NCBI GenBank assembly: GCA_964510585.1
Contig: CAZECW010000075.1
Coordinates: forward strand, 2,696-34,695
Source: an uncultured archaeon
GTDB taxonomy: Archaea > Asgardarchaeota > Jordiarchaeia > Jordiarchaeales > Jordiarchaeaceae
DNA: 32,000 nucleotides
Direction: 5' to 3'
Made by a program: the position numbers and the translations under genes. The first letter of the stretch is position 1. Each line of letters starts with the position of its first letter. The notes beneath the pieces are model-generated. The model was not told where the DNA came from and searched no databases. It was given only the letters and a program-made list of their open reading frames with translations. Below are positions 8,480 to 31,315 of this stretch, in pieces.

Positions 8480-9265
8480 TTATGGTTTGTTTAATTTTTT
8501 GGACCGTTTTTGAACCAAGCTGATTCGTACAGTATGGAAAAACATAACTGAGGCAACAAGTATCATCCCTAGAGTTATGGATAAATACGCGTTATCAATA
8601 ATTTGCGGATTCCATACTCCTCCTATGCTGTAACCTGCAAAGATAAAACCGTTTTGAACACCAACGTAAAGCCAAGAAAACTCATAATATACGTGCATCC
8701 AGTAACCATTTTTATATTCGTGTATTTGCATTTCTGATAGTGGCATGAATAGATCGGCCAAGAATTTTTCATATCTATGAATTTCCTGATAATAATGTAT
8801 AGTAAAGTTCACAGGATTTGTAGCATTCTTTTCAAGATAGAGTACCCACTCACTTGTACCATTGTAATATTTTTTCACTTCTACCGTGAAGTTGGCGCTG
8901 CTAACACTGTCCGCTTTGAAAACAGGATTCCTCTCAAACCAGCCCGGTTCTGTAATGTTTATGTAAAAGTTCACTGTATCGTTCACTTCAAGGTACCCTT
9001 TAAGATAGGGAGTAACTGCATGGTTGGAGTTTTTACCATAAAGGCTGTAGTAACTTATGTTAAAAGTATAATTGGGATTCTCGGACGTAAGCACACCAGC
9101 AACCATCTCCTCAGTAGAGTAGGAGGGATATGGTAATAGCACCACTCCCCAGTTGCGACCATATTTGAAAGCAAAGTAGGAACCCAGAAATATCATTGAA
9201 AAACCTACTAGAAGAATGAGGACTATTCCAATTCCCATCTTATTTGTAAACTTCTCCCACACCAA
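8480..9265 (-). CDS. Hypothetical membrane-anchored surface glycoprotein
   Basis: N- and C-terminal hydrophobic helices flank a beta-rich region with 8 N-x-S/T sequons; basic C-terminal tail. Confidence 0.7.
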   Translation of the reverse strand: MVWEKFTNKMGIGIVLILLVGFSMIFLGSYFAFKYGRNWGVVLLPYPSYSTEEMVAGVLTSENPNYTFNISYYSLYGKNSNHAVTPYLKGYLEVNDTVNFYINITEPGWFERNPVFKADSVSSANFTVEVKKYYNGTSEWVLYLEKNATNPVNFTIHYYQEIHRYEKFLADLFMPLSEMQIHEYKNGYWMHVYYEFSWLYVGVQNGFIFAGYSIGGVWNPQIIDNAYLSITLGMILVASVMFFHTVRISLVQKRSKKLNKP

Positions 9266-15161: not shown

Positions 15162-15602
15162 ATGAAAGCCTATATGGTAGAAAAAATGAAGGAAAGGAAG
15201 GAAAATTACCTTCGCAAAATTCAATTTGCTCAAGATAACATTAAATCCGTTAAAATGTGGCTGACAGGAATAACGCTTGAAAAGTTTTTGGACGATAAGA
15301 AGACACGCTATGCCGTGTTTAAGGCCTTTCAGGAAGTGGTAGAAACCTGTATGGATTTGGCGGCTATGCTGGTTAAAGATCGTGGAATTCCACCCAAAGA
15401 TGATTATACCAATCTGGAGAAGTTAAGAGAAGAAAAGGTAATATCTGGCGAGATGGAGGATATTTTAGCGGAGGCTAATGGTCTACATAAATGGATAATC
15501 CACAGATACAATAAGCTGGATGAAGCAGAAGCCTACAAAGCGATGCTTAGACTCATAACTCCCCTAGAGGGATTCATAGGAGTTGTAAAAAAGTGGATTT
15601 AG
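15162..15602 (+). CDS. HEPN (DUF86/HepT-like) toxin-family protein with degenerate RNase motif
   Basis: A..KAFQE.VE...DL, PKDDYTN, ANGLHKWIIHRYN; overlaps the MNT gene. Confidence 0.85.
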   Translation: MKAYMVEKMKERKENYLRKIQFAQDNIKSVKMWLTGITLEKFLDDKKTRYAVFKAFQEVVETCMDLAAMLVKDRGIPPKDDYTNLEKLREEKVISGEMEDILAEANGLHKWIIHRYNKLDEAEAYKAMLRLITPLEGFIGVVKKWI

Positions 15603-15976
15603 TGGAGAAAATTAAGAGGGATTTCGGATTTCTGACCGATCGCCGTGATGTTCTAGCTGTGCTTCTTTACGGCTCTCAGGCTTCAGGTGAGTCCACTCCG
15701 AGGAGCGATGTTGATATCTGCATTGTAGCCCCGAAAGCAGACCGTGACGAGCTTTTTAGAACAATTTTGAGGCACGTTAGAGAACCTTATGATGTCAAGA
15801 TATTTGAATCTCTACCAATGTACTTGAAAATTCAGGTGATCAAAAACCACATCGTAGTCTATGCAAGAGAGATCCTAGACCTGTACGAATACTTCTACAC
15901 CTACAGGAAACTCTGGAAGGATCAAGAGAGGCGGAATACACTAACAAAAGAAGATATAGAAACCCTCCTCAAATGA
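15593..15976 (+). CDS. Minimal nucleotidyltransferase (MNT/MntA-like antitoxin)
   Basis: LYGSQASGESTPRSDVDICIV (GS-x10-DxD), YDV..F..LP. Confidence 0.9.
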   Translation: MDLVEKIKRDFGFLTDRRDVLAVLLYGSQASGESTPRSDVDICIVAPKADRDELFRTILRHVREPYDVKIFESLPMYLKIQVIKNHIVVYAREILDLYEYFYTYRKLWKDQERRNTLTKEDIETLLK

Positions 15977-18840: not shown

Positions 18841-19028
18841 AGAAGGTTCGCCTCGGCAAGCTATCTTGAACAGGAGTGTAAGGGAGTTATAAGGTTGAGT
18901 GCTTTATATCTTTCTCCGCTGTGACAGTATTAATTATTTTTGAATTGTATTTTTTAAAAAAATTTTATATAGATGGTTAAAATAATTAACAAGTCATATA
19001 TCTTCTGAAAGTGAAGGAAGGTTGTGGT

Positions 19029-19108
19029 ATGAGTATTGACTTGGGAAATAACCGTCTAAATGTTGGCAACCAGTTGGTTAGAGCAGCTTGGAGGTATCCA
19101 GACAAGGA
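19029..19108 (+). repeat. 80-nt direct repeat, copy 1 (79/80 identical to 22140-22219)
   Basis: Direct comparison shows a single C/T difference at nt 12. Confidence 0.9.
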
Positions 19109-20570
19109 AGCGGTGGTCTGCAAGGGCAAAAGGTTAACCTTTAAGGAGTTGAATTCTAGAGCTAATAGTTTGGCTCATGGAATCATGGATCTGGGTTTAA
19201 AAAAGGGAGACTTTGTTTCTGCTTTAATGATGAATTGTACCGAGTATGTTGAGACTTATTTCGCGTTGGCAAAGATGGGAGCAATTATCGCTCCATTGAA
19301 CTATAGGTTGACCCCCAATGAGCTTGTTCAACTCATCAATCAGTGTGAAGCTAGAGCAATAATTTTCGGTCAAGAGTTCAAAGATTTGGTTAAAAATTTG
19401 CGCCCACATATTGGAACCGTGAAGCATTATATCTGCGTTGGAGAAGAAGTGGTTCAAGACGTTATTCCATATGAGGACTTAGCTACTGGTTACTCTACAG
19501 GTGAGCCGAATGTTGATGTTTTTCAAGACGACGGTCAATTTATGAATACTACTTCTGGTACCACGGGTTTACCCAAGGCGTCCATAATGTCGCATTTTAA
19601 CAATCTCGCAGTGGTTATGCAGATTTCACTTGAAATTGGGTTAACATCGGACAAGGTTTTCATGACCGTTCTTCCACTATTCAACAGAGTTGGGTGGACC
19701 ACAACTCTTACCGCAGTTAGCTGCGGATGTAAGAATGTTATCACAGAGATTGACCCCAAAGCAATACTAGAGGCAATCCAAGAAGAGAAAGTGAACATGG
19801 TGAACTTTGTACCCGTGATAACGAATCTTTTAATGCTTGTTCCCGAATTTGAAAAATATGACACCAGTTCCATGGAGCTCATCATATATGCGGGAATGCC
19901 CCTAACTTCCGAAACCCGAGAGGCAACCTACAAGTACTTTGCACCCAAAATCTCTGAGTATTACGGCTCCACAGAAACTTCCCTAATAACATATTGTAAT
20001 CCTGAAGTAAAGAGAAGGAAACCAACCTCTCTGGGAACTCCAGTATTTGGAGTGGAATTAAGACTAGTTGATGAAAAGGATCAAGATGTACCCCTAGGGG
20101 AAATAGGAGAAATTATTATAAGGTCTCCCGCTCTAAACGCCAACTATTTCAATAATCCCGAAAAAGCGAAAAAAGACATGCGTGGCGGATGGTTCCACAC
20201 CGGTGATTTGGGAAGATTCGACGAAGAACGACATCTATACGTTGTGGGCAGAGTTGAGGACATGATTATTAGTGGAGTTGACAAAATTTTCGCCCCAGAA
20301 GTGGAAGAGGTGATACAGAAACACCCTAAAGTCGGGCAGTGCGCAGTAATCGGATTACCAGATAAATCCCTAGGCAAAGTGGTTACCGCTGTAGTAACCC
20401 CCAAGCCGGGAGAAAATGTGGATGAGAGAGAAATTATAGAGTTTTGTAAGGGTAAAATAGCAGATTTCAAAATACCGAAAAAGGTGAAAACAATAGAAGC
20501 TATTCCAAGAACCCCCACCGGGAAAGCCATAAAGTTCCAACTGGTGAAGAGATTTTCGGAACAAGAGTGA
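19029..20570 (+). CDS. AMP-dependent acyl/aryl-CoA ligase, paralog 1
   Basis: TSGTTGLPK, YYGSTE, FHTGDLG, GR.ED, PRTPTGK; ATG 19029 chosen by alignment to paralog 2. Confidence 0.92.
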   Translation: MSIDLGNNRLNVGNQLVRAAWRYPDKEAVVCKGKRLTFKELNSRANSLAHGIMDLGLKKGDFVSALMMNCTEYVETYFALAKMGAIIAPLNYRLTPNELVQLINQCEARAIIFGQEFKDLVKNLRPHIGTVKHYICVGEEVVQDVIPYEDLATGYSTGEPNVDVFQDDGQFMNTTSGTTGLPKASIMSHFNNLAVVMQISLEIGLTSDKVFMTVLPLFNRVGWTTTLTAVSCGCKNVITEIDPKAILEAIQEEKVNMVNFVPVITNLLMLVPEFEKYDTSSMELIIYAGMPLTSETREATYKYFAPKISEYYGSTETSLITYCNPEVKRRKPTSLGTPVFGVELRLVDEKDQDVPLGEIGEIIIRSPALNANYFNNPEKAKKDMRGGWFHTGDLGRFDEERHLYVVGRVEDMIISGVDKIFAPEVEEVIQKHPKVGQCAVIGLPDKSLGKVVTAVVTPKPGENVDEREIIEFCKGKIADFKIPKKVKTIEAIPRTPTGKAIKFQLVKRFSEQE

Positions 20571-20706: not shown

Positions 20707-21414
20707 ATGAGAATAAAAATTATTAACCCAAATACGCATTTGGAGGGAACAAAACGCATAGAAAGAGTGGCTAAAGCACATGCCAGAGCAGACACGGAGG
20801 TTATAGCGGTTAGTCCCAAAAAAGGACCGGACGCTATTGAAGGTTCTTACGATGAAGCCTTGGCAGTACCTGGAGTCCTAGAAGAAATAAAGAGGGGGAT
20901 AGAGGATGGCTACGATGGCTTCATAATTGCATGCTTTTTGGATACAGGTCTTTATGCTGCTAGAGAACTGACTGATAAACCAGTTATAGGAATTGGTGAG
21001 GCCTCTATGCACATGGCCTGTATGCTGGGACGCAGATTCTCTATGCTCTTGCCTGCACCGAGATGGGATATAACCTATGTTTTGGCAGAGTTTGTCCGGA
21101 GATACGGTTTAGAGAATAGGTTCGCATCGGCCAGAGGTATAGGATTGGGGGTATTAGACATCGATAAAGACATAGGTAAAACCCTAGAGATTCTCAAAGA
21201 GGAGGGAACTAAAGCCATTCTACAGGACGGTGCAGAGGTTATTTTGCTTGGCTGCGCAGGATTTGCGGAACTAGACAAGAAGCTTGAGAAAGAATTGGGA
21301 GTTCCAGTAATAGATCCCGTTATTGCAGCGTTAAAATTCATGGAAGCAATACTGGACTACGGCAAAAAAACGAGTAAAATCTCCTTCAGGCTGCCAGAGA
21401 GACTGAGAAAATAA
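20707..21414 (+). CDS. Asp/Glu/hydantoin racemase family protein (hydantoin/allantoin racemase-like)
   Basis: IINPNT, IACF.D.G, PVIGIGEAS, LGCAG, GVPVIDPV; two catalytic Cys; GAGGTGA SD. Confidence 0.9.
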   Translation: MRIKIINPNTHLEGTKRIERVAKAHARADTEVIAVSPKKGPDAIEGSYDEALAVPGVLEEIKRGIEDGYDGFIIACFLDTGLYAARELTDKPVIGIGEASMHMACMLGRRFSMLLPAPRWDITYVLAEFVRRYGLENRFASARGIGLGVLDIDKDIGKTLEILKEEGTKAILQDGAEVILLGCAGFAELDKKLEKELGVPVIDPVIAALKFMEAILDYGKKTSKISFRLPERLRK

Positions 21415-22139: not shown

Positions 22140-22219
22140 ATGAGTATTGATTTGGGAAATAACCGTCTAAATGTTGGCAACCAGTTGGTTAGAGCAGCTT
22201 GGAGGTATCCAGACAAGGA
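22140..22219 (+). repeat. 80-nt direct repeat, copy 2
   Basis: Matches 19029-19108. Confidence 0.9.
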
Positions 22220-23675
22220 GGCTATAGTTTGTAAGGGTAAGCGTGTTACCTTCAAGGAGCTTAACAGACGAGCTAACAGTTTAGCCCACGGATTGATGGG
22301 TCTTGGAATTAGGAAGGGAGACTTTGTCGCAATAATTCTTATGAACTGTGTGGAATTTGTCGAAACTTACTTCGCTTTAGCAAAGATTGGAGCAATTGCC
22401 GCCCCACAAAACTATAGGCTCACCCCGAACGATATTGAACAACTTATTAATCAGTGCGAAGCAAAAGCACTAATTTACGGTAGTGAGTTTAAGGATTTAG
22501 TCAAAAATTTGCGTTCAAAATTGAAGTCAGTTAAAAACTACATATACGTTGGAGGGGGAGAGTTCGAAGACGCTATCCCCTACGAAGAATTGGCGACAGC
22601 GCATTCAACTGAGGAGCCGAAGGTTGACATTTTCCAAGATGACGGCCAATACATGAATTATACTTCAGGCACTACTGGGTTGCCGAAGGCTTCGATAATG
22701 ACTCATTATAATAATCTTATGGCGGTATCGCAGATAGCTATGGAGGTAGGATTTGACTCAAGCTGGGTCATAATGACAGTATTTCCACTGTTTCACCGGG
22801 TAGGATGGGTAACTGTATTGGCGGGGGTTACATTGTGTTGTAAAAATGTTATAACGGAAATAGATCCAAAGAGTATACTTGAAAACATTGAGAGGGAAAA
22901 GGTCAACTTCGTCAATTTTGTTCCAGTAATAACGAATCTTCTTATGATGGTACCCGACTTTGACAAGTATGATATGAGTTCACTTAGAACAATTGTGTAC
23001 GCAGCAGCTCCGCTAACTACTGAGGTGAGGGAAGCTACTCAAAAATATTTCACAAAGAACATAGCAGAGTATTATGGAAATACCGAGAGTTCTATTCTGG
23101 TTTATTGTAACCCGGAGATGAAAAGAACTCACCCCACATCTGTGGGCACACCTGCATTCGGAGTTGAGCTACGATTAGTTGACGAGAATGATAAAGATGT
23201 GCCAATAGGAGAGATCGGTGAGATTGTCTGTAGGTCTCCAGCATTGAATGCTAACTACTTTAAGAACCCTGAGAAAACAAAACAGGCGATGCGAAACGGT
23301 TGGTTCCATATGGGAGACCTTGGCAGATTCGATGAGGATGGACACTTGTACATTGTAGGAAGGGTGGAGGATCTAATCATTAGCGGTACAGACAGAATTT
23401 TTGCACCAGAAGTGGAAGACCTACTTAGACAGAATCCTAAAGTTCAAGACTGCGCAGTTATAGGGTTACCAGATAAAGTATTGGGCAAAAAGGTCACCGC
23501 AATAATAACACCCAAACCGGGAACACAAGTAAATGAAAAGGAGTTGATAGAATACTGCAAAGGTAAAATCGCCGATTTCAAAATACCTAAGAAGATAATA
23601 ATAAGTGAGATGATACCAAGAACTGCTACTGGAAAAATTCTAAAATACCAGCTTGTGGAAAAATATTCCCATTAA
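22140..23675 (+). CDS. AMP-dependent acyl/aryl-CoA ligase, paralog 2
   Basis: YTSGTTGLPK, YYGNTE, FHMGDLG, PRTATGK; colinear with 19029..20570. Confidence 0.92.
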   Translation: MSIDLGNNRLNVGNQLVRAAWRYPDKEAIVCKGKRVTFKELNRRANSLAHGLMGLGIRKGDFVAIILMNCVEFVETYFALAKIGAIAAPQNYRLTPNDIEQLINQCEAKALIYGSEFKDLVKNLRSKLKSVKNYIYVGGGEFEDAIPYEELATAHSTEEPKVDIFQDDGQYMNYTSGTTGLPKASIMTHYNNLMAVSQIAMEVGFDSSWVIMTVFPLFHRVGWVTVLAGVTLCCKNVITEIDPKSILENIEREKVNFVNFVPVITNLLMMVPDFDKYDMSSLRTIVYAAAPLTTEVREATQKYFTKNIAEYYGNTESSILVYCNPEMKRTHPTSVGTPAFGVELRLVDENDKDVPIGEIGEIVCRSPALNANYFKNPEKTKQAMRNGWFHMGDLGRFDEDGHLYIVGRVEDLIISGTDRIFAPEVEDLLRQNPKVQDCAVIGLPDKVLGKKVTAIITPKPGTQVNEKELIEYCKGKIADFKIPKKIIISEMIPRTATGKILKYQLVEKYSH

Positions 23676-23841: not shown

Positions 23842-25212
23842 ATGGATGGAGGATGGTTGGATAAACAGTTATCTAAAAAATTTGTGAAGCAGGTTAAAAA
23901 AAGGATTCCATGGATTGACCATTTGATTGAGGATTATTCTACTGCTTTGGAGTTTAACCCGGAACTCATAGATTATTCTGTGCCTAAGCAGTCTGTCTGT
24001 CTTCTGTGTAGGGGTACAAGGATGTTGTGTGGAAAAAAGAAGTGTCCTCTGCTTGAGCGTTTTTATAGTTATGTTAGGGTGTCGAGGAGTTTTGATGGAA
24101 CTCAGCTGGTTGGTGATTCTCCGCCGAGTGCCTTTGTGGGTAGAAAGGGGTATCCTTATGTTTATGCTGGTCCGATGGTTCCTCCGGAGAGGGGTGACAC
24201 CAGTATTTATGATGTTCCTGAGTTATGGTATGGGAAGGATGTGGAGGAGATAATTGGTTTTAGATGCAAACTGGTGCGGGGTATGTTTATCACAGATGTT
24301 AGGGATGCCAACTCGGATAACAAGTTGCTTAGGGATACCAGGGAACTGGCTCTTGCTGGTGAGCCTGTGGACGCTGAGGTTATATTGAAGAAGAAGCCTA
24401 AGCATCGCCTTTTGCTATCTAGTGAGGTGCAGCCTATGGGCCCCTCCGCGCCCCTTGAGAACATTAACATTGGGTCGTTGAAGGTGCCAAAAATTGTGGA
24501 TAAGGTGTATTTTGACACTGATCTTAAAGCCCTTGATGGGATGTTGATGCTCTACGAGAATGGTTTGCCTGTTACCAGGATACAGCGGATTTTGAGTGTT
24601 GGCGCTATGGGAATTAAAGATAATAGGAAATTGGTGCCCACCAGGTGGAGTATTACTGCTGTGGATAGCAATATCTCCAAATTTTTGAGGGAAAACGTGA
24701 AGGATTTCCCATTGATTAATGATTATTTGGTGTATGAGGCGGATTATCTTGATAACAGGTTTGTTGTTCTTATGATGCCGAGGCCTTGGAGCTACGAGTT
24801 GATAGAGGCATGGTTTCCGGGCACTTTGTGGAACCCTGATAGGGAGCATGTGGGTATGGCTGCGGATTGGGAGCCATATTGGGGTAGAACTACTTATGCC
24901 AGTATTGGGGGATGCTACTACGCTGCTAGACTTGCGGTTACGGAGCATCTTCTTCGGGAGAGGAGGCAGGCATCTGTAGTTATTTTCCGAGAAACGCTTC
25001 CTGGAAATTTGATGCCTCTGGGGGTGTGGCTGGTTAGGGAATGTGTGAGGGATGCTTTAAGAAGGGAACCGGTTAAGTTTCAAACATTGGAGGACGCTCT
25101 TCAACATGTTAAAACTCGGCTTCGCATTGGTATGAAACATTGGTTGCAGGTGAGTGGGGTATTGTCTGAAGTTAGGAAGCAGCGTTTATTAACTGAGTTT
25201 TTAGGGTTTTAA
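23842..25212 (+). CDS. nreA: Nre-family DNA repair protein (PCNA-interacting)
   Basis: CxxCRG...LCG...CP, SPPS.FVG..GYP, LVPTRWSITAVD, GGCYYAARL, GVW.VRE; C-terminal PIP box QRLLTEFL. Confidence 0.9.
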   Translation: MDGGWLDKQLSKKFVKQVKKRIPWIDHLIEDYSTALEFNPELIDYSVPKQSVCLLCRGTRMLCGKKKCPLLERFYSYVRVSRSFDGTQLVGDSPPSAFVGRKGYPYVYAGPMVPPERGDTSIYDVPELWYGKDVEEIIGFRCKLVRGMFITDVRDANSDNKLLRDTRELALAGEPVDAEVILKKKPKHRLLLSSEVQPMGPSAPLENINIGSLKVPKIVDKVYFDTDLKALDGMLMLYENGLPVTRIQRILSVGAMGIKDNRKLVPTRWSITAVDSNISKFLRENVKDFPLINDYLVYEADYLDNRFVVLMMPRPWSYELIEAWFPGTLWNPDREHVGMAADWEPYWGRTTYASIGGCYYAARLAVTEHLLRERRQASVVIFRETLPGNLMPLGVWLVRECVRDALRREPVKFQTLEDALQHVKTRLRIGMKHWLQVSGVLSEVRKQRLLTEFLGF

Positions 25213-25214
25213 CC

Positions 25215-26024
25215 TTGATTGAGGAAGTTAAAGAAGTTTTTTGTAAGGGAATTTTGAGTAGGAGCGGAATAGGTGGTGTAGACTATTCCATTAATCCTTA
25301 TACTGGCTGTTCTCATGGCTGTGCATACTGCTATGCCCGCTTCATGTTGAGGTATGCTAAGACTAGGCAGCCCTGGGGAAAATTTGTCCACGTAAAAATT
25401 AATGCCCCCACGGTATTAATGAAGGAAATTAAGGGTAACATGTGGGGGACGATTCTTTTAAGTAGTGTTTGTGACCCTTATCAGGAGCTGGAGAAAAAAT
25501 ATGAGATTACTAGGAAAATTTTGCAGGTAATTTCCAAGCATAACAATTTTAAAGTTGACATTTTAACCAAGTCAGATCTAATAGTGAGGGATTTGGACAT
25601 AATAAAGAAAATAAAAAATGTTGAGGTGGGGTTCTCCATCTCTCATTTCGATGAGGAGTTTAGGAGAATATTTGAGCCCGGAGCGCCCAGTGTTGAAAAA
25701 AGATTCCATGCCTTAGAAACCCTAAACAAAAGTGGGGTTGACACGTATGTTTTTGTTGCGCCAGTCATTCCACTAATCACTGAGAGGCACATGGAAAGTA
25801 TACTGGAGAGCGCTGAGCGCTGCCATGCGAGGTACCTGTTTTTCGACACACTAAATATCAAGTGCGGGAACTGGAAACCCATTACCGCAGCAATGGAGAA
25901 ATATGAACCAAAGATTCTTCCACGCTTTATAGAAGTGATGGAAAAACCAGAAGGATACTACTCACAATTCAAAGAAAGAATCTTAAATATGTGCAATAAC
26001 TTACCCTGCAGTTTTACATTCTAA
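25215..26024 (+). CDS. SplB/Rv2578c-like radical SAM protein
   Basis: NPYTGCSHGCAYCYA (CxxxCxxC), SS.CDPYQ..E, LTKS.L..RD, FEPGAP...R; starts 2 nt after the Nre stop. Confidence 0.88.
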   Translation: MIEEVKEVFCKGILSRSGIGGVDYSINPYTGCSHGCAYCYARFMLRYAKTRQPWGKFVHVKINAPTVLMKEIKGNMWGTILLSSVCDPYQELEKKYEITRKILQVISKHNNFKVDILTKSDLIVRDLDIIKKIKNVEVGFSISHFDEEFRRIFEPGAPSVEKRFHALETLNKSGVDTYVFVAPVIPLITERHMESILESAERCHARYLFFDTLNIKCGNWKPITAAMEKYEPKILPRFIEVMEKPEGYYSQFKERILNMCNNLPCSFTF

Positions 26025-26801: not shown

Positions 26802-28322
26802 TTATTCGCTTTTTTCAATTATATGGTTGGCTGCCAGTTTGCCAGTGTACATAGATGTGGGGTAGCCTCCCAGGAACAGTTCACGGGCTGAGGAAATGCC
26901 TACTACTAAAAGGTTGGGGATAGGAGTTTCAATTAGCAGTTTTTTTCCGATTTTGCTTTGTTCCTTAATATTCCATGACCAGCCGGCGATAGAGCCCTGG
27001 TATCGGTTTCCCCAGTCTTGATAGGTTAGGGGTGTAGCTATTTCCATTTTCTCAATGGAGCTTGACAGCCCGGGTAACAAACTTTCCACGGTGTGTATTA
27101 GTTTTTTTGCCAGTTTTTTCTTATAGTTGAGGTAGCCCTCCCTTCTTTTCTTCTCGCCTGTCCTCCACATGGAGAAATGGTCGTAAGGGAAACTGACGCG
27201 TAGAATGAGGGTGGCCTTTCCGGGCGGAGCTGAGTCTGGTGCGTTGGCGGACCATAGGCATATTTCTATTTCTCGGTTGTCAAAATCTTCGGGGTTAAAT
27301 TTTCGTGGGGATTTTATTTCTTTTCTGTAGAAGACGTGTTGGGCTCTCATTTTGCTTAGGTCAATTTTTTGGGGTTCCACTCCCAAGTATACGCAGAGTT
27401 CGGAGCCCGACAATGTGTAGTTTTTAACCCTGCTTAAAAATTGTTGGGGAAGATTATAGGGATTTACTAGTTCTAGGAAGGTTTTCTTATAATCAGCATT
27501 GGATACTACCCAGTGGGATTTGAAGATTTCACCATTAAAGGTTTTAACCCCTATTGCGCGCTTATTTTTGATTAGAATTTCTTTGACTCCCTTTGATAGT
27601 TTCACTTCTCCATTGTTGCTTAGAATGCATTCATAAACTAGTTGGTTTATTCCATGAATGGTGCACGAGGGATACCAGATTCCCCTCATAGTGGTGAAGT
27701 CCCACATGAATGCCAGGAGGGCTAAGGACATTGTGGGTTCATAGGTGCTTTGGGATCCCAGAAAATTCTGCAATATTTTGGTTGATATGTGTTTTTGAAG
27801 GTATTCTTTTGCTGGGACCTGTAGGTTTTCATTCATGATTTCGAGTTCCTTCTTGTGCTTGGGAAGGTTTTTTAGTGCCTCAGTCCTATTTTTGCCCATT
27901 AGGTACTCAGGATGCCATAGATGAATTTTTTTGGTGGTTTTAACTATTTCCCGCAGTTTTTGGATAAAAATGTCGATACCCCGCCTTTCATTTGAAAAAT
28001 ATTTTTTCAAATCTTTTCCCAACTTGTCAAATGATTGGGAGTAAATAATGTCGAAAAAGGGGGTGATTAGCTGAAAATGGTTGCGTTTAAAACGAATTTT
28101 TTCTCTGACTCCAATTTCACTTAATAATTCTTTTACCAAGTCAGGAGAACTGAAGGATAAGGGGCCCATCGGGAAATAGTATGGGCCTCTTCTAAAAATG
28201 TGACTGGTACCACCAATGTGTGGATTTTTCTCCAATAGCAGAACACTTTTGCCATTTTTCGCAAGTTTAGCGGCACAGTACAATCCCCCGATTCCCGCCC
28301 CCACTACTATAGCGTCATACAA
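26802..28322 (-). CDS. FAD-dependent oxidoreductase, phytoene desaturase/CrtI/RetSat-like family
   Basis: DAIVVGAGIGGL, LEK...IGG, VVSNAD, YLGV, ATPLTY...G.I.GW, GGYP....G..AA. Confidence 0.88.
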   Translation of the reverse strand: MYDAIVVGAGIGGLYCAAKLAKNGKSVLLLEKNPHIGGTSHIFRRGPYYFPMGPLSFSSPDLVKELLSEIGVREKIRFKRNHFQLITPFFDIIYSQSFDKLGKDLKKYFSNERRGIDIFIQKLREIVKTTKKIHLWHPEYLMGKNRTEALKNLPKHKKELEIMNENLQVPAKEYLQKHISTKILQNFLGSQSTYEPTMSLALLAFMWDFTTMRGIWYPSCTIHGINQLVYECILSNNGEVKLSKGVKEILIKNKRAIGVKTFNGEIFKSHWVVSNADYKKTFLELVNPYNLPQQFLSRVKNYTLSGSELCVYLGVEPQKIDLSKMRAQHVFYRKEIKSPRKFNPEDFDNREIEICLWSANAPDSAPPGKATLILRVSFPYDHFSMWRTGEKKRREGYLNYKKKLAKKLIHTVESLLPGLSSSIEKMEIATPLTYQDWGNRYQGSIAGWSWNIKEQSKIGKKLLIETPIPNLLVVGISSARELFLGGYPTSMYTGKLAANHIIEKSE

Positions 28323-28418: not shown

Positions 28419-29357
28419 TTATAGGAGTGAAAAGAGATATTGTAGTATTTCTCTGTTAATTAGTGCTGCTTGTGATGGCTGGACGAAAAAGGGATATACA
28501 GGCATAATTCCGTAAATTGCTGCGCAGGCTACGATGGCAATCACGTTGCCAAGAAAGAATAGGAGCGAGAAAGCGTAAAAGGGATTTGACCTCACAGTTT
28601 CTTTATCGTTTTCGGTGAAATGTATTTTGCCTCTCCACAGTAGGAGTACCATGACGACAAAGGCTGAGGAGGAGAAAATAATTGTTTCAAATGCTGCTTG
28701 TCCCTCCACCACGCTTACTCCTATTCCCAGGCCGAAGAGTAATCCTAGAAAGCCAAGCAGAGAGTAGTCTAGTTGAGTGAATTTTCTGGTGTAGCCATGC
28801 TGGTTTTGCAGAATGGTCCCCGCAACTATGAAGCCAATAATTCCTAGGTAGATGAACTTGTGGCCAAGTGTTTCGTCAAAGAGATAGTTGAGGTAGTAAA
28901 TATTATTCGTAAAAGTTACAGGGTCTATGGTGAATGGAGTGTAGGGGGGAACCAGCGCAATGTAGTAAGTGAATGTGTGTAATTCGTTTGCTACGTAGCG
29001 CATCCCTAATCCGCTGAGAAATACGAAAATGAATAGCATGAAAATTATTTCCGCCAGGGTTTTGGTCTTTCTTGCCTCTTCGGTTTCTGGAGGTTGAGCC
29101 AGTATCTCCTTGAAAATTAGGTAGAGCATTATGGTTCCAATGCTTCCCAGGAGCAGGAAGCTTAGAAGCCTTCCCACAGAGAGAAAAGCGGTGAACCATG
29201 TGAACGGGTAAAATTCTGGTATGGGAATGGATACAAAGCCGTACACTTCGCCCCAGAACACCTCTAGAACCAGGGTAATAATACTCCAGCTTACAACTAG
29301 TATGAAGAGGTAAATTAGAAGCCGGTTCCGTGTAAAGAAGTCTTCACTCAATTCCAC
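28419..29357 (-). CDS. Multi-pass membrane protein, candidate CLN6 homolog
   Basis: About 7 hydrophobic segments; motifs P..WF....SVG, YLFDETLGH, VEGQ and SN occur in the same order as in CLN6 (compared from memory). Confidence 0.7.
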   Translation of the reverse strand: MELSEDFFTRNRLLIYLFILVVSWSIITLVLEVFWGEVYGFVSIPIPEFYPFTWFTAFLSVGRLLSFLLLGSIGTIMLYLIFKEILAQPPETEEARKTKTLAEIIFMLFIFVFLSGLGMRYVANELHTFTYYIALVPPYTPFTIDPVTFTNNIYYLNYLFDETLGHKFIYLGIIGFIVAGTILQNQHGYTRKFTQLDYSLLGFLGLLFGLGIGVSVVEGQAAFETIIFSSSAFVVMVLLLWRGKIHFTENDKETVRSNPFYAFSLLFFLGNVIAIVACAAIYGIMPVYPFFVQPSQAALINREILQYLFSLL

Positions 29358-29418
29358 AACCTCACAGAATTATTTTTTTAACGAAATAAATTTTGTATTC
29401 ACACTCATCATTTTTCAA

Positions 29419-30561
29419 TTAGTATTGTTCCTTGAGGTAAGGTATAATTTCCCTTGTAAGTATTTGGTAAACATGTTCATATGTGTATGGGTCGGGGTTT
29501 TTTGGGTCTTTTGCTATGTCGTTATCTATCATTAGAACAAAATGTTGAACTCCGCCTTTTATTAGTTTTTCCAATTTTTTGGTAACTTCCTCCTTTGTGC
29601 CCATGAGGGTGGCCTCTCTCACAAAATCGTTGGGAACATCCTTTACAATCTCGCCCAGCACTCCCAAGTCTAACTGGTCAATGCTGTGAAAACTAAGAAG
29701 ACTCAATTTCTCGGGACTAAAGCCCAGTTTTTTATAGAGTTCCCTCTTCTCCTCCTTCCAGTATCCTAATAGCTTCATTTCCTTGGCAAATTGGATGGGT
29801 ATTGAAAGCTTCTTGAGTTCCAAGTATAGCTGCAGCTCCGTTTCATTTTCATGTATAAAGATCCAGTTCCAGTATCCGAATGTGAAGTTTTCCATGTCCC
29901 TATTGTTTTTCTTTAGGCTGTCTTTTACCTCACCCGCCTCTGCCTTGTAGGTGTCTGCGCTTAGGGGGATGGGTATCCAGCCGTCAGCTAGGGCCCCAGC
30001 CAACCATCTAGTTTTGGGACCGTTGGCCGCCATCCAGATGGGTATGGGGTTTTTTATTGGTGGGGGTTCAAATACTGCATCCTTTAGTTCAAAAAATTCG
30101 CCCTTGTGGCTCACTTTTTGTCCTCGGGAGTTCCACAATTTTCTTAAGACCTCTATGAACTCCACCATTTTGGACACCGGCTTATTCTTGTAGGAGAAGC
30201 CATAGGTTTCAAGGTTGAAGGCCTCTCCTGCCCCTAATCCTAGGATGAATCTTCCATTGGAGATGTGGTCTATGGTCATAGAGATTTGTGCCAGTACTGC
30301 GGGGTGGTAGCGGTGGGGATCTGTGACCGCAGTTCCCAGTAAAGGCTTCCTCTTCAGCTCTGCGAATAGACTGAAAATGGGCCAAACATTATAATTCTTA
30401 AAGGGACTTATTGGTGGTAGACCGCCCAGATGGTCCCCTAACCACAGGCTATCCCAAACATTTTCGTCCACTATTTTTACAAAGTTTATGTATCTCTCCC
30501 AGTTCTCAGCTTCGTAAGCTTCTAAACTTAGGTCTATTCCAAACTTGACTCCCTTACTCAC
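29419..30561 (-). CDS. LLM-class (luciferase-like, probably F420-dependent) oxidoreductase
   Basis: DSLWLGDH, GTAVTDP.RYHPAVLAQ...T.D..SNGRFILGLGAGE..N, PIWMAA.GP, ADGW. Confidence 0.9.
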   Translation of the reverse strand: MSKGVKFGIDLSLEAYEAENWERYINFVKIVDENVWDSLWLGDHLGGLPPISPFKNYNVWPIFSLFAELKRKPLLGTAVTDPHRYHPAVLAQISMTIDHISNGRFILGLGAGEAFNLETYGFSYKNKPVSKMVEFIEVLRKLWNSRGQKVSHKGEFFELKDAVFEPPPIKNPIPIWMAANGPKTRWLAGALADGWIPIPLSADTYKAEAGEVKDSLKKNNRDMENFTFGYWNWIFIHENETELQLYLELKKLSIPIQFAKEMKLLGYWKEEKRELYKKLGFSPEKLSLLSFHSIDQLDLGVLGEIVKDVPNDFVREATLMGTKEEVTKKLEKLIKGGVQHFVLMIDNDIAKDPKNPDPYTYEHVYQILTREIIPYLKEQY

Positions 30562-30757: not shown

Positions 30758-31315
30758 TTGATCACTGACGAGGAAATTCAGAAGATCAAAAAAATGAGTA
30801 AGAAGGAAAAGATGAAGTATTTGGAGAGCAGAATCAGTAGAGTGCTCTCAGAGCTTCCAGAGGAAGATAAGAAGATAATCAGAGAAGCAGGATCGCAGAT
30901 TCTGGCTAACTTGTTTTCCGGTGAAGGTATGGCACTTATGGGAAGGCTCATGGAACAAATGTTTTCCGGCATATCTGAGGAGGACATGAAGAATCTCCAG
31001 AATTTGTCTCAAGAATCGGGTGAGCAGGGACCGGAAGACTTCGCCAAAATGATGGAAATGGGTATGGGTGTGATTGAAAAAATGATGAAAAACATGGTTT
31101 CTGGCGAAGGTATGGATCTCCTAGGGAAAATGATGGGCGAAATGGTCGGCGACCCAGACAAAATGCAGTCATTACTCAACCTGTCTGGAGAAACCCAGGA
31201 AAAGCTGCAAGATATGCAAGAGCTCACAAACGCCGTTATGTGTGACTTGACACCAGAAGACTATACAGAATTAACCCAGAGACTTCAAAAGATATACGAG
31301 AAACATTTGGGATAA
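30758..31315 (+). CDS. Met-rich acidic alpha-helical hypothetical protein with internal repeat
   Basis: TTG start after GAGGTGA SD and TATA; 22 Met in 185 aa; SGEGM repeat twice. Confidence 0.8.
   Translation: MITDEEIQKIKKMSKKEKMKYLESRISRVLSELPEEDKKIIREAGSQILANLFSGEGMALMGRLMEQMFSGISEEDMKNLQNLSQESGEQGPEDFAKMMEMGMGVIEKMMKNMVSGEGMDLLGKMMGEMVGDPDKMQSLLNLSGETQEKLQDMQELTNAVMCDLTPEDYTELTQRLQKIYEKHLG

Follow-up and report, generated by a model that had tools for sequence, protein, structure and literature searches.

A predicted seven-helix membrane protein of an Asgard archaeon as a very distant CLN6 relative with a remodelled predicted pocket

Does an archaeon carry a relative of the Batten-disease protein CLN6, and what could such a protein do in a cell whose lipids are set apart from those of bacteria and eukaryotes by the handedness of their glycerol phosphate? 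The question is raised by a gene in a 32,000-nucleotide stretch of DNA (the window; G000:C75:2696-34695, on contig C75) from a 3.78-Mb, 96% complete genome. The minus strand holds an uninterrupted open reading frame of 312 codons at 28419-29357, in which the first-pass annotation had seen a 312-amino-acid protein with about seven transmembrane (TM) helices; the reading frame was confirmed, and an AlphaFold2 model of the product has seven long helices. A GAGGT motif precedes the opening GTG by only 1 nt and a TTG codon at 29351 by 7 nt, and the homolog P0002 (94% identical, 310 amino acids) begins at the residue equivalent to that TTG. Because of this spacing and of the start of P0002, translation probably begins at 29351, giving 310 amino acids.

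28419..29357, minus strand: gene for the CLN6-like seven-TM membrane protein, 312 amino acids from GTG, probably 310 from TTG at 29351
29359..29363, minus strand: GAGGT, a putative Shine-Dalgarno-like motif that lies 7 nt upstream of the TTG

The first-pass annotation had allowed for an Asgard host. An initial search returned 18 homologs, all 52-94% identical to the window protein, five of which bear taxon names, namely Freyarchaeota or Jordarchaeaceae/Jordarchaeales; since the named close homologs all belong to Jordarchaeia or Freyarchaeota, the host is an Asgard archaeon.

The biochemistry of CLN6, called unclear in the first-pass annotation, has since been addressed in two preprints dated 9 October 2026. 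According to their available text (PMC13692256, the same work as bioRxiv 10.64898/2026.10.07.757477; bioRxiv 10.64898/2026.10.07.757350), CLN6 is a Ca2+-dependent epimerase that converts glycerophosphoglycerol (GPG) from R,S to S,S and acts in the ER, upstream of CLN8 and CLN5, in the synthesis of S,S-BMP. The variants D59A, D131A, D173A, E174A, H178A and E227A gave no rescue, and R62H, H127Y and the double mutant Y182A/Y223A also disabled the protein (PMC13692256; 10.64898/2026.10.07.757350). In the proposed model, a phosphoryl group undergoes 1,3-migration by way of phospho-His178, with two Ca2+ ions taking part; the cavity opens to the lumen, and in it D59 stands opposite the S-glycerol that does not react (PMC13692256; 10.64898/2026.10.07.757350). 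The diester is left intact and the topology is N-in/C-out in the available part of one preprint (10.64898/2026.10.07.757350), and CLN6 is modelled as a homodimer in the preprint material. The strings 'archae', 'bacteri' and 'prokaryot' are absent from the main texts of both (PMC13692256; 10.64898/2026.10.07.757350).

Searched directly, the window protein gave no match in Pfam, NCBIfam or PDB sequences, and the Pfam CLN6 family PF15156 (gathering cut-off, 27 bits) matched neither the protein, nor its genome, nor any of 19 close orthologs (0/19) at E<=1. The lack of a direct Pfam match would suit a chance likeness between hydrophobic seven-TM proteins, as would the nearest ESM Atlas cluster, whose score of 0.89 is a lead only (362 members, 12% with PF15156, 85% bacterial among those labelled). 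The links made by A1, the profile of the protein's orthologs and clade, speak against chance. A1 has matches in 19 of 61 related genomes and, in a set of 1.84 billion proteins, finds 70 representatives with E<=0.001. There it reaches P0077 (E 1.7e-5), and within the genome of locus L013 it reaches that locus's gene (E 2.8e-18); both pass the PF15156 cut-off, with 30.2 and 28.9 bits, respectively. Of 88 relatives found with A1, 15 matched PF15156 at E<=0.01, and 2 of these exceeded the cut-off; a further 63 relatives gave 9 matches at E<=0.001, again with 2 above it (best 40.2 bits); and among 22 hand-picked proteins, two of them not family members, 18 matched and 10 exceeded the cut-off (best 47.3 bits). 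A1 itself scored 41-53 bits against five long-type proteins that pass the PF15156 cut-off and only 11-31 bits against six bacterial-type ones, with shuffled controls at 8.1 bits at most and reversed controls at 2.5 bits at most. An hhalign comparison of A1 with 14 cut-off-passing proteins gave 99.3% and E 1.7e-20 over 207 columns.

The matches also agree on register. PF15156 profile position 144 is the D of a D-E-x3-H motif in 7 of the 7 local matches that start just before the motif, and in these alignments the motif keeps one consistent register relative to the CLN6 profile. Taking position 144 as D173 gives an offset of 29, so that the family's TM2 aspartate would correspond to about residue 83, not 59; the prokaryotic matches begin at profile position 36 at the earliest, and D59 and R62 would lie at positions 30 and 33. 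The homology that the first-pass annotation had proposed therefore stands in two steps, through A1 to prokaryotic proteins that pass the cut-off; the Pfam check that it had suggested gave nothing for the protein itself and a significant result by way of A1. All six of the blocks it had set beside human CLN6 are present on the window side (residues 49-62, 112-125, 155-170, 216-220, 256-263 and 288-294). Their human side is as quoted in the first-pass annotation, and its spacing (H-x3-D, D-E-x3-H-x3-Y, Y-x3-E) fits the residue numbers in the available preprint text. With the two-step links significant, and with the family's invariant residues being those that mutagenesis defined in CLN6, chance likeness is very improbable. 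By profile evidence, the window protein is a real but very distant relative of CLN6, with a homology that is transitive only.

AlphaFold2, run with a 91-row alignment, modelled the window protein with a pLDDT of 92.2 and a pTM of 0.90, as seven long helices with a beta-hairpin between TM1 and TM2. The N-terminus carries 2 lysines and arginines, and loops 2, 4 and 6 carry 4, 2 and 4, against none in loops 1, 3 and 5 and 1 in the tail; this alternation (2/0/4/0/2/0/4/1 from N-terminus to tail) argues for an N-in/C-out orientation. The protein is thus predicted to have seven TM helices in the N-in/C-out topology of CLN6, with its motifs at the outer helix ends.

29178..29243, minus strand: predicted outer-face beta-hairpin between TM1 and TM2, residues 39-60 (AlphaFold2 model)
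29169..29171, minus strand: R63 at the start of TM2, in a column corresponding to about CLN6 residue 83, where 138 of 200 family rows carry an acid (D or E)
28983..29000, minus strand: outer end of TM3, R120-x3-N124-E125, aligned with CLN6 H127-x3-D131, both changed
28848..28877, minus strand: putative catalytic motif D161-E162-x3-H166-x3-Y170, equivalent to CLN6 D173-E174-x3-H178-x3-Y182 by alignment and profile register
28698..28706, minus strand: E218-G-Q220 motif, aligned with CLN6 E227
28476..28496, minus strand: C-terminal Y288-P...Q293-P294 tail, typical of the long-type subfamily by alignment

A Foldseek search with this model gave no match at E<=0.001, and the best result of a VIA fold search (Z 7.7) was to unrelated helical bundles; these searches show neither a new fold nor a different one. 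Structures of the CREST members ACER and PAQR are absent from the fold matches listed. No CLN6 chain or solved CLN6 structure surfaced in the PDB searches, and the sole PDB result obtained with another profile, A3, was a designed protein at E 0.03, which was discarded.

Within 200 non-redundant family rows, E162 and H166 are conserved in all 200, D161 in 198 and E218 in 190, and all four are invariant in 19 of 19 orthologs of the window protein. The conserved D/E/H residues that the first-pass annotation took as a hint of an ancestral enzymatic or ligand-binding role are therefore a near-invariant core that coincides with the residues of the CLN6 mutagenesis. Around it, several positions have changed. 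The H127 column holds H in 186 of the 200 rows and R120 in the window protein; the D131 column holds N in 178, the prokaryotic norm, and D in 18, with N124 in the window protein; Y170, the equivalent of Y182, is kept, and the position of Y223 is V214; and R63 and S66 stand where most relatives carry two acids. Among the orthologs, R120 is found in 18/19, N124 and E125 in 19/19 each and R63 in 17/19. Because the changes are fixed in its clade, the pocket appears to be remodelled, not decayed. At the outer end of TM1 stands an acidic residue, E32 (E or D in 17 of the 17 orthologs with a residue there), which is at most a candidate counterpart of a TM1 residue of CLN6.

An arginine where 186 of 200 rows have histidine, together with the loss of the TM2 acids, would also be expected if the Jordarchaeia copy were a weak or inactive, ligand-binding or regulatory paralog. 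The working enzyme would then be a second paralog with a canonical pocket, encoded on contig C76 (L001:4276-5157), which keeps H..N, D-E..H and E-G-Q and whose ortholog in genome G003 scores 21.7 bits with PF15156; both copies are present in 9 of the 11 genomes of the order. We consider this unlikely, as the four core residues are invariant in 19/19 orthologs and the 100% complete genome G005 has only the window-type copy, in which residue 120 is H. In several Asgard genomes, CLN6-like genes form tandem or near-tandem pairs (L118, L139, L147, L153, L154), and in L118, L147 and L153 one copy of each pair is without the H127 equivalent.

The reading that we favour, with a probability of about two in five, is that the window protein is an outward-facing, phospho-histidine glycerol-phosphate mutase or epimerase that uses a divalent metal, probably Ca2+, and has a remodelled pocket for a substrate other than free GPG. 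By analogy with CLN6, D161, E162 and E218, with N124, would hold the metal; H166 would attack the phosphorus, forming a phospho-histidine; and the primary hydroxyl that is free on the glycerol would take the phosphate back. Such a shift of phosphate between the two ends of glycerol would invert its handedness, in an active site placed at the outer face of the cell. In an ether lipid, the backbone's other primary carbon is ether-blocked, so a 1,3-shift could take place only at the free head-group glycerol. As substrate, we think most likely the free glycerol in the head group of an archaeal ether lipid of the phosphatidylglycerol type, placed in the outer leaflet, or some related glycerophosphodiester. 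That Jordarchaeia have lipids of this type, and with which stereochemistry, is our assumption here, and a literature search on the stereochemistry of archaeal diglycerol phosphate yielded no usable result. The residues weigh on both sides of the proposal. The CLN6-essential D173, E174, H178 and E227 are all matched in the window protein, but H127, D131 and Y223 are altered and D59/R62 have no aligned counterpart, each of them being mutation-sensitive in CLN6 (Y223 together with Y182). The missing D59/R62 match would fit a substrate that has something other than a free glycerol as its non-reacting half, which favours a head-group mutase or epimerase, and the alignment suggests that the substrate differs from free GPG.

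The same metal and phospho-histidine chemistry might instead end with water or a foreign alcohol, in which case the protein would be an outward-facing glycerophosphodiesterase or a head-group transferase, serving to scavenge or remodel phosphodiesters. We rank this second; it is doubtful, with real points in its favour. An invariant catalytic core is combined with a variable substrate pocket, and a patchy distribution with up to four paralogs per genome suits a substrate-diversified family. The search for a GDPD-family enzyme gave 0 matches in the host genome (the control was positive in 11 of 14 genomes). In 18 bacterial loci (L070-L096; Aminicenantes and records labelled Eubacteriales), an Omp85-family barrel gene lies directly upstream of the CLN6-like gene, which points to cell-envelope work. 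Weighing against it, the one relative with a characterised activity, an epimerase, leaves the diester intact, as stated in the available text of 10.64898/2026.10.07.757350, and neither a transporter nor a glycerol-catabolic gene is a recurrent neighbour. The Omp85-linked loci often lie near SDR, B12 radical SAM, ThiL-like and UbiA genes, and this gene group is possibly an envelope-lipid cluster.

The lipid genes of the host bear on another proposal: like CLN6, the protein would be a genuine GPG epimerase, with free R,S-GPG released from bacterial phospholipids as its substrate, and might in this way provide S-configured (G1P) backbones by a bypass. In favour of this, the core residues are conserved, and no G1PDH (NF002022, E<=1e-70) turned up in any genome of certain Asgard families with a CLN6-like gene (f9 0/135, f30 0/14), nor in f25 (0/12), f17 (0/5) and f31 (0/4). 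The host genome itself has G1PDH, however, at 411.7 bits against a cut-off of 413, and the putative active site lies on the outer side, apart from lipid synthesis in the cytosol. Over 400 Asgard genomes, which are related and not independent, 29 have both genes, 31 only the CLN6-like gene, 97 only G1PDH and 243 neither; with no complementarity between them, the idea that the CLN6-like gene stands in for a missing G1PDH is not supported. Free GPG as the substrate is accordingly the more improbable of the two unlikely readings, behind an inactive paralog and ahead of chance likeness alone. Most genomes of the five families without G1PDH are also without a CLN6-like gene. The host genome has two CDP-alcohol phosphotransferases. 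Its GpsA-family matches, only weak Rossmann matches, were rejected, as was its best glycerol-kinase match, which lies below the cut-off. A PlsC-type acyltransferase was not found in this 96%-complete genome, and no BMP-like downstream route is therefore seen. A CLN8/TLC search of the genome likewise gave no match, but its control was silent as well, so this result carries no information.

Gene neighbours lend weak support to a lipid substrate. The gene is flanked on both sides by co-oriented oxidoreductase genes.

29419..30561, minus strand: luciferase-like (LLM) oxidoreductase, upstream and co-oriented; synteny only within the genus
26802..28322, minus strand: CrtI/carotenoid-isomerase-like FAD oxidoreductase, downstream and co-oriented; below all carotenoid-family cut-offs; synteny only within the genus

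In G005 and in the sister family, the neighbours of the CLN6-like gene are different, and around 87 distinct family genes they are varied, clade-dependent and mostly unrelated to lipids. The C76 paralog lies co-oriented upstream of a nucleoside phosphorylase gene and a geranylgeranyl-reductase-family gene, an order repeated in L014 and L022, so that the reductase-family gene stands two genes downstream of a C76-type paralog in three loci. A UbiA prenyltransferase gene directly follows a CLN6-like gene in two other Asgard loci.

Elsewhere in the window, two closely similar AMP-binding (acyl-CoA ligase-like) genes (19011-20570 and 22140-23675) lie on either side of an Asp/Glu/hydantoin racemase gene (20707-21414) and represent a local duplication. 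An overlapping pair at 15162-15976 looks by eye like a toxin-antitoxin module of HEPN/DUF86 and minimal nucleotidyltransferase type, and at 23842-26024 an archaeal gene for the DNA-repair protein Nre precedes one for a radical SAM protein that weakly matches spore photoproduct lyase. Three open reading frames (30758-31315, 8480-9265 and 1679-2095) gave no convincing Pfam or NCBIfam match; the first is Met/Glu-rich and lies at most two genes from the CLN6-like gene in G005 too.

How far the family extends determines what can be said of its ancestry. Profile A3 matches 60 of 400 Asgard genomes, in 36 of 85 genera, and all 11 genomes of the window's order, with up to four paralogs in a genome. 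Seed genomes apart, matches are sparse: 4 in 250 Chloroflexota genomes, one of them weak and incomplete, none in 200 genomes from the phylum of the Thermoplasmata seed, and 1 in 200 from that of the Methanomicrobiales seed. The contrast may be overstated because A3 is Asgard-heavy and few candidates per genome were scored. A pattern scan of 185,579 genomes gave 505 matches, of which 60 loci were confirmed; these are mostly bacterial and come from Dehalococcoidales, Anaerolineales, Aminicenantes, Cyanobacteria and others. A further search added homologs from Zixibacteria and Calditrichia, a few other archaea besides Asgard also carry them, and none of 145 pattern matches in viral contigs was confirmed. 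Bacterial relatives, which the first-pass annotation had thought possible, therefore exist in several phyla. Its suggestion of an under-recognised eukaryotic-signature-like protein fails in its strict form, because homologs occur in bacteria and other archaea and the bacterial ones also pass the CLN6 cut-off.

The phylogeny covers prokaryotes only. Of 365 profile hits, 356 were long enough, and clustering reduced them to 200 rows for FastTree; an unrooted quick tree was made with IQ-TREE (LG+C20 PMSF, SH-aLRT only) from 72 mostly taxon-labelled rows of <50% identity, without the long-branched or unlabelled L126, L121, L124, L125, L101 and L138. The NCBI label of L112 was left out of the non-Asgard occurrences, its placement being doubtful. 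IQ-TREE splits 34 long-type from 38 short-type rows with a support of 96, and FastTree gives a similar split with a support of only 84. Of the long-type rows, the window protein among them, 30 are Asgard, none is bacterial and 4 bear no label; a Y-P..Q/E tail is present in 24 of 34 long-type versus 0 of 38 short-type rows. The window protein falls in a nine-row clade (support 97) with the Hodarchaeota-labelled P0033, in whose three-row subclade (P0033, P0029, L110:5704-6579) an aspartate stands where CLN6 has D131. Long-type proteins score highest with CLN6 (40-47 bits), by a narrow margin over the bacterial type, which reaches 37 bits. The human blocks that the first-pass annotation quoted first and last look similar to long-type features; no profile match extends past position 257. 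One metagenomic member (L126:382-1164, L127:266-1048; 87.6 bits to A3) lies on a contig of 59% GC, has low-complexity flanks and looks eukaryotic. It has a short-type tail, a very long branch and no PF15156 match, and a microbial eukaryote may have acquired it separately.

Asgard enrichment and a subfamily without a bacterial row keep an Asgard ancestry of CLN6 in play. Eukaryotic CLN6 would then descend from the Asgard long-type subfamily, and the archaeal host of eukaryogenesis would already have had a glycerol-phosphate-inverting membrane enzyme on its outer face, the equivalent of the ER-lumen side; the 'archaeal-handed' S,S BMP of lysosomes would be made by an archaeal enzyme, inherited and crossing the lipid divide. 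We put this forward tentatively, as a scenario with perhaps one chance in a few. We found no literature that links CLN6 to Asgard archaea or describes a prokaryotic CLN6, although supplements or subscription journals may list it; the terms CLN6, ceroid and PF15156 are absent from three of the four supplementary files of PMC12962969, and CLN6, ceroid and Batten from the available main text of 10.64898/2026.10.28.762692. Databases already tag some prokaryotic proteins automatically with PF15156.

Inversion of glycerol stereochemistry by 1,3-phosphoryl migration through a phospho-histidine is a rare chemistry, assigned to CLN6 only in October 2026 in the available preprint text. With an Asgard-enriched family that has the CLN6 catalytic core, two matters become open to direct test: whether the handedness of glycerol is inverted by prokaryotes in phosphodiesters already made, and what the origin of the BMP pathway is. 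In structural work, prokaryotic homologs could also take the place of CLN6; canonical-pocket copies would be better suited to this than the window protein, and the subclade with D at the D131 position offers good candidates for an assay of the CLN6 type.

Among known systems, the CREST superfamily (alkaline ceramidase, PAQR) consists of seven-TM metal enzymes with three-histidine zinc motifs. The window protein resembles it as a seven-TM membrane enzyme candidate with putative metal-binding residues near one face; it differs in that no sequence match was found, nor a fold match among those listed, and the three-histidine zinc motifs are not evident. With the uncharacterised prokaryotic CLN6-like proteins, annotated as 'hypothetical protein', it shares the G-x-G-H-x3-N, D-E-x3-H and E-G-Q motifs and the fold class. 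The bacterial or short-type forms (about 245 amino acids) keep the histidine and the TM2 acids and are without the Y-P..Q tail, whereas the window protein belongs to a longer subfamily and has a remodelled pocket. From human CLN6 it differs in falling below Pfam detection on its own, in the changes of H127 to R, D131 to N and Y223 to V, in having no aligned D59/R62, and in a host that makes G1P ether lipids and has no detected PlsC-type acyltransferase. What it has in common with human and vertebrate CLN6 are seven predicted helices in about 310 amino acids, a predicted N-in/C-out topology and a probable non-cytosolic cavity, and, in register with the human protein, the equivalents of D173, E174, H178, Y182 and E227.
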